DNA of 51,285 nucleotides from a phage: the sequence record PZ445413.1, one strand, 5' to 3'. The first letter of the stretch is position 1, and each line of letters begins with the position of its first letter. Under the pieces are notes generated by a model. It did not search any database and was not told the origin of the DNA. It worked only from the letters and a program-made list of their open reading frames with translations. A program made the translations under genes and the position numbers. Below, piece after piece: positions 23,347 through 24,442 of this stretch.

Positions 23347-23373
23347 TAAAGGAGCCTTTCGGCTCCTTTTTTT
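23347..23373. terminator. bidirectional terminator (near-identical hairpin to 20331-20357)
   Basis: aaaggagcctttcggctccttttttt between convergent ssb and minus-strand gene. Confidence 0.6.
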
Positions 23374-23623
23374 ATTTCTCACTTTCTGCCATACCCAGAA
23401 CCGCGATCACCTTTACTGCGATCCGCTTTGCCAGTTCGGTTTGCTGTGCGTTCAGCTTTCCGGTTGTCATGATTGACAACATTCCGCTCATGCTTCCAAG
23501 CCCATTAAAATCAGCCATCGCAGATTTCATAATTGACATTGGGGAGTGACCTTCATTTGCAATAGCGTGCGCTCTCCCTGATAGGTCACTAACAACCTGA
23601 TCGACCCCATCACTCTTTGTCAT
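23372..23623 (-). CDS. hypothetical protein
   Basis: 83 aa; RBS ggaagga; convergent with ssb across bidirectional terminator. Confidence 0.4.
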   Translation of the reverse strand: MTKSDGVDQVVSDLSGRAHAIANEGHSPMSIMKSAMADFNGLGSMSGMLSIMTTGKLNAQQTELAKRIAVKVIAVLGMAESEK

Positions 23624-24104
23624 TTTCTTTTCCTTCCGCTTGCGCTGGTTGTTCTGGCATTACAGGCCAGGGGCTAATTGATTCTCGTGCCGTCGCTGGC
23701 TTTTCCGGCTCCATTCCCAAGAATTTACCGACAAACTCACCAACGAAATTGGAGCTATCGCTTACATAAACGTGCATCCGATCCAGATCGGAAGTTGTAA
23801 CGCTATTTGGCGCAATCATAATGCGCTGTTGATGAAAGCCGATATACATCACATTTACAGGGCGCTCAAGCGTGCCAGGGTTTGGAGCAATAACGCCCAT
23901 AATCCAGCAATAGTAAATTTGACCATCGCCCAAAGGCTCACAGCCAGCGTTTAGCCAGTTCACTTTCTGATGTGGGAACATCATAGACGAATCCGTTGCG
24001 TCACGCCGTAGTGACCAATTAACGCCGCCAATTTCAATGTTTGTACGTGGGCGCATACCATTAAACTGAGTTACACCCGCGCCATTCTGAGTAATGTTTT
24101 GCAT
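23610..24104 (-). CDS. hypothetical protein
   Basis: 164 aa; RBS aagaaggtaag. Confidence 0.45.
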   Translation of the reverse strand: MQNITQNGAGVTQFNGMRPRTNIEIGGVNWSLRRDATDSSMMFPHQKVNWLNAGCEPLGDGQIYYCWIMGVIAPNPGTLERPVNVMYIGFHQQRIMIAPNSVTTSDLDRMHVYVSDSSNFVGEFVGKFLGMEPEKPATARESISPWPVMPEQPAQAEGKENDKE

Positions 24105-24118
24105 ATCGGCTTACCTTC

Positions 24119-24442
24119 TTACATTGATTTCATTTTACGCAGAGCGCAAATGCACGCGGCGGCGAGATCTGTTAATTCTTTCTCAATGCCGTGATGCGAG
24201 CCATCTGATTTTTCAGTCATTAGCTCTTTGTACTCCATTTCGACAATCGCCATTAAGCCGCCTGGCTTTTCAATGTGCGCGTCCCAGGTTTTAGGATAGT
24301 GCTTAGTTCTTTCCATAACACTTCCCATAACTGCATCATGTTCATGATCTCGATCATAATCTCCATCATTGCGGGAACCTCCGATCACAATGCGCGGCAA
24401 ATGCACGCGGGGTAAATGATAGCCAGCAACACGAATTTTCAT
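24119..24442 (-). CDS. hypothetical protein (His/Asp-rich)
   Basis: 107 aa; RBS aagagga. Confidence 0.45.
   Translation of the reverse strand: MKIRVAGYHLPRVHLPRIVIGGSRNDGDYDRDHEHDAVMGSVMERTKHYPKTWDAHIEKPGGLMAIVEMEYKELMTEKSDGSHHGIEKELTDLAAACICALRKMKSM

Follow-up and report, generated by a model that had tools for sequence, protein, structure and literature searches.

The stretch of DNA analysed here (hereafter the window) is the whole 51,285-nucleotide phage sequence of record PZ445413.1. Between its ssb gene and a fibre-associated Gly-rich gene, an earlier note had described three minus-strand open reading frames with good ribosome-binding sites as a separate unit. Our analysis showed that these three ORFs are the last genes of a four-gene cassette, which is accompanied by the following features, given in the direction of its transcription.

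25322..25350, minus strand: Rho-independent terminator of the lateral tail-fibre gene (10-bp stem, 6 G-C pairs, T8 run)
25275..25304, minus strand: candidate sigma-70-like promoter, CTTACA (25304-25299), 18-nt spacer, TATATC (25280-25275)
25229..25243, minus strand: dyad or 5'-UTR hairpin GTAGC-AAGGG-GCTAC, 29 nt upstream of the gene-1 ATG
24489..25199, minus strand: gene 1, 236-aa Gly/Cys-rich protein (phrog_9288, E 6.9e-123)
24463..24482, minus strand: G+C-rich intercistronic hairpin between gene 1 and gene 2, 8-bp stem
24119-24442, minus strand: gene 2, 107 aa, Shine-Dalgarno AAGAGGA
23610-24104, minus strand: gene 3, 164 aa, Shine-Dalgarno AAGAAGGTAA
23372-23623, minus strand: gene 4, 83 aa, Shine-Dalgarno GGAAGGAAAAG
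23348..23369, both strands: bidirectional terminator common to ssb (plus) and the cassette (minus), AAAGGAGCCTTTCGGCTCCTTT followed by a T run on the plus strand
23405..25123: segment missing in the related phage W011D (1,719 bp, blastn)

The three small ORFs are real, as first proposed. A Shine-Dalgarno sequence precedes each of them, all three match function-less PHROG families (gene 2, E 3.5e-48; gene 3, phrog_8329, E 7.5e-88; gene 4, phrog_7239, E 7.6e-43), and comparison with relatives gave dN/dS values of 0.04-0.21 for genes 2-4, including 0.04-0.07 for gene 4. On these grounds we consider them genuine protein-coding genes and not chance ORFs. For gene 1 the ratio was 0.08-0.30, and for genes 1-4 taken together 0.04-0.30. 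The orientation of genes 2-4 opposite to recE-erf-ssb was confirmed; since they are co-oriented with the adjacent fibre and primase genes, they represent the tail end of a leftward block and not an orientation island. The proposed placement between convergent terminators applies to the 3' end only (23348-23369), the hairpin at 24463-24482 being a same-direction element inside the operon. The Gly-rich gene at 24489-25199, previously regarded as a fibre-associated neighbour of a three-gene unit, is gene 1 of the cassette and is not tied to fibre genes in other phages.

Homologues of gene 1 were found ahead of the trio in CAjan, eiAU, Sasha, P400, Segz_1, L012 and L014, as well as in 28/29 IMG/VR loci; L044 has no gene 1 and an intact trio. 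The order g1-g2-g3-g4 was found in 26/29 IMG/VR loci, and operons of the same order are present in at least six unrelated siphovirus groups, at differing genomic positions. Genes 3 and 4 overlap by 14 nt (23610-23623), and this overlap is kept in JakobBernoulli, KLB26, CAjan, eiAU, Sasha and P400. Judging from this arrangement, gene 4 is translationally coupled to gene 3.

Terminators flank the cassette at both ends. The fibre-gene terminator forms its upstream boundary and is kept in W011D, JakobBernoulli, KLB26 and CAjan, and the terminator shared with ssb forms its downstream boundary, at a site equivalent to one where T1 has annotated terminators in both orientations. Just inside the upstream boundary, we infer CTTACA-N18-TATATC to be the candidate promoter of the cassette. 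Direct reading of the sequences showed that it is kept in Hanrivervirus-like copies and in the W011D scar, with another TTACA box 11 nt further downstream. A consensus promoter scan missed this conserved element because its -10 hexamer ends in C. In the leader, GTARC-N5/6-GYTAC lies ahead of gene 1 in 28 copies of the cassette, and its loop takes 12 different forms. Every cell (100%) is paired in these copies, which were gathered by a regular expression pre-selecting exactly that shape; they include one G.U variant and a single compensatory change from A:U to G:C. The 46-nt spacer between genes 1 and 2, which contains the 8-bp stem hairpin, folds at -14.7 kcal/mol (z = -2.4), and a hairpin was present at this junction in 8/8 lineages folded, with differing stem sequences. 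It is annotated as a terminator in the Sasha record. Only 20 nt, Shine-Dalgarno included, separate it from the gene-2 ATG, and it is probably a partial terminator, an attenuator or an mRNA stabiliser. An Rfam search over 22800-25500 returned nothing beyond one sub-threshold sRNA match.

The location of the cassette differs between phages. It follows tail-fibre or tail genes in Hanrivervirus, CAjan and eiAU, lies between TerL and portal in Sasha and beside capsid genes in P400 and Segz_1; L012 has it within its replication genes, and L014 upstream of its terminase. Cassette-bearing phages also include pSf-1 and Bas05-12. In T1 and vB_EcoS-95, ssb directly adjoins the fibre gene and the cassette is absent. 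W011D, the closest relative of the window that was found (primase 98.4% identical in amino acids), has lost it by deletion. Blastn aligned window positions 20298-23404 with W011D (L015) positions 14447-11342 at 96.8% identity, and window positions 25124-25898 with positions 11350-10577 at 90.5%, so that presence and absence alternate between conserved flanks, as defines an accessory unit. What is left is a fusion of about 25 gene-1 codons with the final 11 of gene 4, and the scar reads ATGTCTGATATAACTCTGTTACCAACTGGCGGAGAT...GGAATGGCAGAAAGCGAAAAATAA. Partial losses were also observed: 9NA retains only g3 and g4, and gene 1 of JakobBernoulli carries an amber codon. A split of the latter gene into two genes was rejected, the interruption being a single in-frame TAG codon. 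A gene-3 homologue was found in 139 records, many of them non-Drexlerviridae, against 1045 records with a T1-type primase; the cassette is therefore carried by only a minority of phages with this primase. Thus the four-gene operon is mobile between unrelated enterobacterial phages, and its status as dispensable accessory cargo, suggested in the earlier note, is strongly supported by its absence from T1 and vB_EcoS-95, its deletion in W011D and its variable position in unrelated phages. That note had named strict conservation in all relatives with localisation in the virion as the observation that would speak against its reading; such conservation was not found.

The claim that the trio has no recognisable motifs fails for the 107-aa gene-2 protein. 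Behind a variable N-terminus with LPR repeats and a His/Asp-rich stretch, the MazG-type motif E70-x2-E73-x15-E89-x2-D92 is invariant in 29 sequences. Members of the all-alpha NTP pyrophosphohydrolase superfamily carry the metal motif E-x2-E...E-x2-D on two helices, separated by a gap of roughly 12-28 residues, and gene 2 shows this arrangement. Its 3-16-3 spacing is that of E119/E122/E138/D141, the Mg ligands of Mtb MazG (PMC10014863). A Pfam search with 29 gene-2 homologues matched PRA-PH (PF01503) in 8/29 (best E 4.4e-4) and MazG (PF03819) in 3/29 (best E 3.3e-3), all below gathering thresholds; the window's own gene-2 protein had no Pfam match. The gene-2 matches converge on one clan, whereas the families of genes 1, 3 and 4 gave scattered singletons only.

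Structure prediction pointed weakly to the same superfamily. The AlphaFold2 monomer of gene 2 has three helices (pLDDT 88-96 over residues 41-107) and a predicted core of about 65 residues, with helices at 32-47, 62-80 and 83-106. Foldseek against PDB gave 7yh5 as the best match (probability 0.97, E 0.11), the other top matches including 2p06 (TM 0.62, target-normalised), 1yvw, 2yxh, 2a7w, 2oie and 1vmg. MazG, AF_0060, HisE and DCTPP1 make up most of this top list, in which nothing reached E <= 0.001. A search of PDB with the gene-2 profile matched AF_0060 (2p06, E 0.15), and hhalign against E. coli MazG placed KEL...KELTDL on YEV...GELGDL at a non-significant E of 0.23. Two depositors independently assigned the gene-2 protein as a "putative pyrophosphatase". 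Two other candidates were rejected: cytochrome P450 EryK, from a single-sequence PDB search (E 0.66), and PA2G4/Ebp1, from the profile search (E 0.005, positions 29-79). The second was considered compositional because the match covers the core only in part, involves an insert in a eukaryotic aminopeptidase-like fold and has no Foldseek or Pfam support. Taken together, motif and model suggest that gene 2 is probably a minimal MazG-like all-alpha NTP pyrophosphohydrolase. Against this reading, none of the individual similarities between gene 2 and MazG reaches statistical significance, and since the core of about 65 residues is smaller than typical MazG domains, gene 2 could be a non-catalytic helical protein.

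The three other proteins yielded few relatives. The N-terminus of gene 1 holds a GxxxG zipper (G23 to G39); the protein also has a long helical region rich in Q/N, a CCCET motif and, at its C-terminus, PTPPTPPTGCCGC. Neither gene 1 nor gene 4 had a Pfam or PDB relative; profile searches of PDB with the two proteins returned only non-significant matches to a de novo TIM barrel, Psb31 and HA2, and HA2 was rejected for gene 1 on this account. Gene 4 is probably helical, as judged from its sequence. Gene 3 is beta-rich with a disordered Pro/Glu/Lys tail, and has conserved His, Cys, Asp and Arg residues, including those in LRRDATD, FPH, GFH and DLDRMHVY. Its model is confident over the core, residues 21-120 (pLDDT 82-92). 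Foldseek of gene 3 against PDB gave nothing below E 0.44, the weak matches to NTF2/SnoaL-like proteins, PsbP and kinases being discarded (TM <= 0.27), and the significant matches in BFVD were members of its own family only. Gene 3 had no Pfam match either, and an exhaustive profile search of 1.84 billion proteins, in a library without annotation, recovered only 49 representatives, all small. A scan of 185,579 genomes representing bacterial and archaeal species gave no cellular homologue of gene 3, and tblastn against plasmids gave none of the gene-2 core. In several records gene 3 is wrongly labelled 'TerL'. Searches of the window proteins against Pfam, NCBIfam and PADLOC gave nothing usable, and NCBIfam matches to 'hotdog thioesterase' (E 0.015) and CdtB (E 0.064) were taken as noise.

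We favour, with moderate confidence, the explanation that genes 2-4 belong to a self-contained four-gene accessory operon with a MazG-type gene 2 and a conditional, nucleotide-based role. The four genes are co-inherited in fixed order and under strong purifying selection, occupy variable positions and have been deleted in W011D. The operon would run from a promoter-like region through the 5'-UTR dyad, gene 1, an attenuating hairpin, gene 2, gene 3 and gene 4 to the terminator; it would have spread horizontally among enterobacterial siphoviruses and would be unnecessary for growth on laboratory hosts. As the hairpin should lower downstream transcription, gene 1 is probably made in excess. The gene-2 protein may form a dimer or tetramer that yields a helical bundle, use E70, E73, E89 and D92 to bind Mg2+, and cleave a nucleoside triphosphate or related nucleotide to NMP and PPi. 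Because they are translationally coupled and share a read-through transcript, genes 3 and 4 are probably its partners or specificity factors. The outcome would be a conditionally beneficial shift of the nucleotide pool or nucleotide signals in the infected cell, serving counter-defence or host takeover. Such a role in the nucleotide pool or signals appears most likely, and a structural role in the virion less so.

Since one of its genes probably encodes a small MazG-type nucleotide pyrophosphatase, the operon is a candidate for host manipulation or counter-defence, and by analogy with known phage effectors an anti-defence role is plausible. A more specific version, which is possible though rather doubtful, is a self-regulated four-component counter-defence system in which MazG-type g2, novel-fold g3, helical g4 and an abundant Gly-zipper g1 would act against a nucleotide immune signal or a toxic nucleotide. 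Alarmones or cyclic nucleotides might be among its targets, as might ddh- or deaminated NTPs, and the conserved leader hairpin could provide autoregulation.

An action at the cell envelope was also considered. Here the fusion-peptide-like, Gly-zipper N-terminus of gene 1 would enter the membrane, genes 2-4 would be non-enzymatic partners or regulators, and the effect could be superinfection exclusion, a change in lysis timing, or remodelling of the membrane. The GxxxG repeat occurs five times in a row in gene 1. The N-terminus MSDMTLLP...GG is kept in relatives at just 27-29% identity, but the protein has no canonical transmembrane segment (maximum 19-residue Kyte-Doolittle value 1.13). Its many weak profile matches to the influenza HA2 fusion-peptide region are non-significant (E 0.18-3). 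T1-like phages commonly carry exclusion lipoproteins such as Cor at tail-adjacent sites, yet no signal peptide or lipobox was evident by eye in gene 1. The intercistronic hairpin should make gene 1 the top-expressed product of the cassette, which counts for this reading; however, JakobBernoulli has an inactivated gene 1 and L044 none at all, with the trio intact in both, and the invariant acidic motif of gene 2 is left unexplained. We therefore regard an envelope function as unlikely.

The position of the cassette in the window raises the possibility of a tail-fibre accessory module, in which the four proteins would help to assemble the lateral fibre as chaperones or form minor or distal parts of it. 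In the window, JakobBernoulli, KLB26 and CAjan the lateral fibre gene is immediately followed by the cassette, which in eiAU comes after tail genes; conservation between Hanrivervirus-like phages and CAjan extends to the fibre terminator together with the cassette leader. Because the cassette follows a tail-fibre gene in three lineages, some room is left for a fibre-linked role. Gene 1 also has a weak PHROG match to tape-measure proteins (E 0.0013), and part of it is annotated in BASEL as a 'putative sugar-binding protein'. Such linkage is not obligate, however, the cassette being away from any fibre gene in Sasha, P400, Segz_1, L012 and L014. W011D has kept its fibre (N- and C-terminal parts 90-95% identical in nucleotides) and lost the cassette, and T1 and vB_EcoS-95 have fibres without it. 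The fibre of the window has, by our reading, its own C-terminal sequence of the intramolecular chaperone type, and we know of no MazG-like helical enzyme that acts as a fibre chaperone. No virion proteome of a cassette-bearing phage turned up in the literature search, and mass spectrometry is not reported in the papers on P400 and 9g. The published vB_EcoS-95 virion proteome (PMC6340994) concerns a T1-like phage that itself has no cassette. SH6 is a member of the T1 cluster, of which T1 itself is without the cassette. A tail-fibre or structural role is unlikely, and a dedicated fibre module quite improbable.

We give little credence to a phage-borne weapon or selfish module, of a toxin-antitoxin-like or defence-like kind, that would exclude competitors or stabilise the cassette. 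The patchy horizontal distribution, own regulatory elements and tightly coupled small genes would fit, but none of the four proteins matched a PADLOC defence component at E <= 1. Defence and toxin-antitoxin systems are abundant in bacterial and archaeal genomes and plasmids, whereas no homologue was detected in the 185,579 cellular genomes (gene 3) or in plasmids (gene 2 core). Since the cassette was lost by simple deletion in the viable relative W011D, there is no sign of addiction. A RiPP- or bacteriocin-like system, in which genes 2-4 would process gene 1, with its Cys/Thr/Pro-rich C-terminus, and the hairpin would set the precursor-to-enzyme ratio, is highly improbable: the gene-hairpin-genes layout resembles precursor-enzyme operons and most lineages conserve the C-terminal PTPPTPPTGCCGC of gene 1 and its CCCET motif, but the distant homologues (L012, L014 and the eiAU C-terminus) lack the cysteines and the C-terminal tail with genes 2 and 4 kept, g2-g4 matched no known maturation-enzyme family, and 236 aa far exceeds the typical precursor length.

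If the accessory, nucleotide-directed operon that we favour is correctly inferred, it is a compact module moving between unrelated phages, whose genes are 'hypothetical' in every database searched. The host names in the records of cassette phages include Escherichia, Salmonella, Shigella, Klebsiella, Yersinia and Edwardsiella. A counter-defence function would make it a portable multi-gene module common to at least six siphovirus lineages. On the favoured reading, the few phage MazG-like effectors would be joined by a multi-protein one, and the fold of gene 3, which has no structural neighbour, would gain a first clue to its function. Natural material is at hand in the W011D deletion, the JakobBernoulli/Bas07 gene-1 nonsense allele and intact copies in isolated coliphages. 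Even an inert cassette would be informative for annotation, as the mislabelling of gene 3 illustrates.

The genetic organization of the cassette recalls the morons of lambdoid and T1-like phages (cor, llp). With its candidate promoter it likewise resembles a promoter-genes-terminator unit between conserved modules, present or absent in close relatives and often located at the end of the tail operon. It differs in its larger size (four genes), its internal, putatively attenuating hairpin and its conserved leader dyad; it is confined to virulent phages, and its proteins are all unlike known exclusion proteins. At the protein level, gene 2 is like the all-alpha NTP pyrophosphohydrolases (MazG, HisE/PRA-PH, dimeric dUTPase, DCTPP1/RS21-C6 and AF_0060-like proteins) in its all-helical predicted core, its E-x2-E-x15-E-x2-D motif and its weak Pfam, PDB-profile and Foldseek matches within this superfamily. 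Unlike them, it has a very short core behind the variable N-terminus, is always found in a fixed cassette with three partners, and its similarity stays under family thresholds. Among phage proteins, the MazG-like Atd1 removes (p)ppGpp by hydrolysis and gives protection from TIR-STING toxicity (Ho et al., bioRxiv 10.1101/2022.06.09.495361). Atd1 resembles the predicted gene-2 enzyme as a small phage MazG-type catalytic domain carried as accessory cargo; Atd1 is a single gene near phage nucleotidyltransferase genes, whereas gene 2 is part of a four-gene operon. The cyanophage MazG, which prefers dGTP and dCTP as substrates for hydrolysis (Rihtman et al. 2019, PMC6850273), is like the predicted gene-2 enzyme a phage-encoded pyrophosphohydrolase that reshapes the nucleotide pool and is no virion component. 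It is, however, a full-size, Pfam-recognised protein encoded by a single gene widely conserved in its group, whereas the cassette is patchily distributed and consists of four genes.

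The phage is a T1-like siphovirus (Drexlerviridae, Tempevirinae). In the primase it shares 98.4% identity with vB_EcoS_W011D (a Changchunvirus; hereafter W011D), the closest relative found, and its cassette region shares ~80% nucleotide identity with Hanrivervirus phages (JakobBernoulli, pSf-1) and Klebsiella phage KLB26. About 20 records labelled "Campylobacter phage" (MG065636, MG065637, MG065669, MG065675 and others) are T1-like genomes with ~80% nucleotide identity to coliphages across the cassette region, and are probably mislabelled or derived from contaminating coliphages. 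The trio of small genes singled out by the earlier note is flanked on the plus strand by recE-like (DUF3799), Erf and SSB genes, and on the minus strand by a 236-aa Gly-rich gene, a 757-aa lateral tail fibre gene and the primase gene. The features of the region are the following.

20332-20353 and 23348-23369: 22-nt palindromic terminator AAAGGAGCCTTTCGGCTCCTTT, present twice and bracketing the recE-erf-ssb recombination module on both sides
20357-20617, minus strand: ORF of 86 aa carrying a lipoprotein signal (…ALTGC), located where T1 has its Cor superinfection-exclusion gene; its W011D homologue is annotated "super-infection exclusion protein"
20650-21030: A+T-rich stretch between the cor-like gene and recE (GC 0.39 in the 20001-21000 composition window), possibly a regulatory region or an origin; it holds short ORFs only, plus an inverted repeat of 21 nt (20655-20675 / 20986-21006)
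23372-24442, minus strand: the trio, genes 2 (107 aa), 3 (164 aa) and 4 (83 aa)
24463-24482: intercistronic G+C-rich hairpin between genes 1 and 2
24489-25199, minus strand: gene 1 (236 aa, Gly-rich)
25229-25243, minus strand: dyad GTARC-N5/6-GYTAC

The three ORFs lie at exactly the coordinates given in the earlier note. A Shine-Dalgarno sequence precedes each ATG by 5-10 nt, and each ORF has a full-length match to a PHROG of unknown function (E = 3.5e-48, 7.5e-88 and 7.6e-43 for the 107-, 164- and 83-aa ORFs). Compared with relatives whose synonymous sites are near saturation (dS 0.4-4.7), dN/dS was 0.12-0.21, 0.07-0.16 and 0.04-0.07, respectively. We read all three as expressed protein-coding genes under selection.

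The boundaries of a three-gene unit proved wrong, as the Gly-rich upstream gene is gene 1 of the same four-gene operon. A gene-1 homologue lies directly upstream of the trio in CAjan (70% identity), eiAU (50%), Sasha, Yersinia phage P400, Segz_1 and two metagenomic phages. Among 29 IMG/VR loci recovered with a gene-2 profile, 26 carry genes 1-4 with order and strand conserved; gene 3 is absent in two and gene 1 in one. The hairpin between genes 1 and 2 occurs at this position in all eight lineages folded, with differing stem sequences and variable U-tract quality, and is annotated as a terminator in the Sasha record. Only 20 nt, Shine-Dalgarno sequence included, separate it from the gene-2 ATG, and transcription of genes 2-4 must therefore pass through it. 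Of the convergent terminators proposed for both ends of the trio, the one at the 3' end (23348-23369), shared with ssb, stands, whereas the other is a co-directional hairpin of the attenuator type inside the operon. The 14-nt overlap between genes 3 and 4 is conserved in JakobBernoulli, KLB26, CAjan, eiAU, Sasha and P400, which implies translational coupling.

Regulatory elements also appear to travel with the cassette. A promoter-like CTTACA-N18-TATATC precedes gene 1. The dyad is also found upstream of gene 1 in the compared loci L001-L004, L006, L008 and L017-L043. In 28 cassette copies, gathered with a regular expression that pre-selected the dyad shape, it stands 22-46 nt ahead of the gene-1 start codon. 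Its loops vary freely, in 12 distinct versions, and a single compensatory A:U to G:C change and a single G.U variant were also seen. The dyad resembles either an RNA hairpin in the 5'-UTR or a binding site for a regulator; an RNA hairpin is favored over a DNA operator by the G.U variant and by the two loop lengths (5 and 6 nt), on what is overall modest evidence.

The cassette is mobile, and its neighbors vary by phage group. Hanrivervirus-like phages and Seuratvirus CAjan carry it downstream of the lateral fibre gene, and in eiAU it follows tail genes. Sashavirus has it between the genes for the large terminase and the portal, and in P400 and Segz_1 it adjoins capsid genes. In metagenomic phage contigs it is found among AAA-ATPase, helicase and DNA-polymerase genes (L012, 73.8 kb) or upstream of terminase genes (L014). 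A tblastn search of 50,697 phage records detected gene 3 in 139, gene 2 in 114 and gene 4 in 161, many of them not Drexlerviridae; for comparison, the T1-type primase was found in 1045. No homologue of gene 3 was detected in species-representative bacterial or archaeal genomes, and a plasmid search found none of the gene-2 core.

The cassette is also dispensable, as seen in isolates with complete deposited genomes (T1, vB_EcoS-95, W011D, JakobBernoulli and 9NA). In T1 and vB_EcoS-95, ssb is followed by a bidirectional terminator and the fibre gene, with no cassette between them. The most direct evidence is a 1,719-bp deletion in W011D, corresponding to 23405-25123 of the window, with flanks 96.8% and 90.5% identical to the window. 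The scar joins the first ~25 codons of gene 1 to the last 11 of gene 4, and the fibre terminator and the cassette leader, with its promoter-like sequence, are kept. In JakobBernoulli (Bas07; L001 3612-4316, minus strand), codon 78 of gene 1 is an in-frame TAG, and for this reason the gene is annotated in two pieces ("putative sugar-binding protein" and hypothetical); the stop is a natural knockout or else a sequencing error. Phage 9NA carries only an N-terminally truncated gene 3 and gene 4. Strict conservation in all relatives, named in the earlier note (together with virion localisation) as an argument against accessory or anti-defence cargo, is clearly not seen, the cassette being absent from T1 and vB_EcoS-95 and deleted in W011D. 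Beside the W011D indel, the central part of the lateral fibre gene (window 25898-26682) is divergent from that of W011D (L015) and aligns with it only in one short stretch of 78% identity; the two ends of the gene, N- and C-terminal, match at 90-95%, and a swap of the receptor-binding domain is suggested.

Gene 2 has a variable N-terminus across its family (LPR repeats, then a His/Asp-rich stretch, up to HHHHHYHHGHH in some members) and a nearly invariant C-terminal core, IVEMEYxELM...KELTDLAAAC. Residues E70, E73, E89 and D92 form an E-x2-E-x15-E-x2-D motif, with a 3-16-3 spacing identical to that of the Mg2+ ligands E119, E122, E138 and D141 of M. tuberculosis MazG (PMC10014863). Pfam scanning of 29 family members returned PRA-PH in eight (best E = 4.4e-4) and MazG in three (best E = 3.3e-3), two families of one clan; the identical scan of the gene 1, 3 and 4 families, used as a noise control, gave unrelated singletons only. 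The AlphaFold2 model has three helices (pLDDT 88-96 over residues 41-107). Its top Foldseek matches in the PDB (best E = 0.11) were M. tuberculosis MazG (probability 0.97), AF_0060, HisE, a T. maritima MazG-related protein, RS21-C6/DCTPP1 and S. solfataricus MazG. The sequence profile also matched AF_0060 (E = 0.15). None of these lines is significant singly, yet they are independent and agree. Gene 2 probably belongs to the MazG-like superfamily, and the chances that it is catalytically competent seem roughly even. Two depositors independently named homologues "putative pyrophosphatase".

The gene 3 model comprises six strands and two short helices (pLDDT 82-92 over residues 21-120), followed by a disordered Pro/Glu/Lys tail. 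It had no PDB neighbor below E = 0.44, and its significant BFVD matches were its own family only. Only 49 relatives, all small, emerged when 1.84 billion representative proteins were searched exhaustively with an HMM. Invariant or near-invariant His, Cys, Asp and Arg residues (LRRDATD, FPH, C55, C66, GFH, DLDRMHVY) hint at a putative binding or catalytic site. Several homologues (OK272487, OK272479, MN850640, KR296690) are annotated "TerL" or "putative TerL protein", which cannot be right for proteins of ~164 aa. Profile, PDB and Pfam searches detected no relatives of gene 4 beyond its own family.

The N-terminus of gene 1 contains five consecutive GxxxG repeats (GLGGAVGGLIGSWFGNGFGG), and its extreme end, MSDMTLLP, is kept even in homologues 27-29% identical. 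The protein has no canonical transmembrane segment, and its profile gave a run of weak, non-significant PDB matches to the influenza HA2 fusion-peptide region (E = 0.18-3). A membrane-directed role of the cassette, driven by gene 1, would be a less likely alternative. A defence or toxin-antitoxin system finds no homology in its support in PADLOC. A fibre or structural module is contradicted by the variable genomic context and by W011D, and a gene 1 precursor with maturation enzymes by distant copies without Cys-rich features.

Sequence comparisons thus support a co-transcribed four-gene operon that is mobile, dispensable and under purifying selection. Its reading as accessory cargo is well supported by the mobile contexts, the patchy presence and the W011D deletion, and its patchiness, together with strong selection in the phages that carry it, fits a function that is useful under certain conditions. 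We lean towards host manipulation or counter-defence. Gene 2 would hydrolyze a nucleotide, genes 3 and 4 would work with it and gene 1 would be produced in excess. The anti-defence role is hypothetical, with one concrete lead. No description of the cassette as a unit was found in papers or records; as a kind, accessory units with MazG-like enzymes are already known in phages. Cyanophage MazG, which prefers dGTP and dCTP, is a precedent for pool remodelling by a phage MazG-like protein (PMC6850273), and the phage MazG-like protein Atd1, which depletes (p)ppGpp and gives protection from TIR-STING toxicity, is one for counter-defence (bioRxiv 10.1101/2022.06.09.495361).
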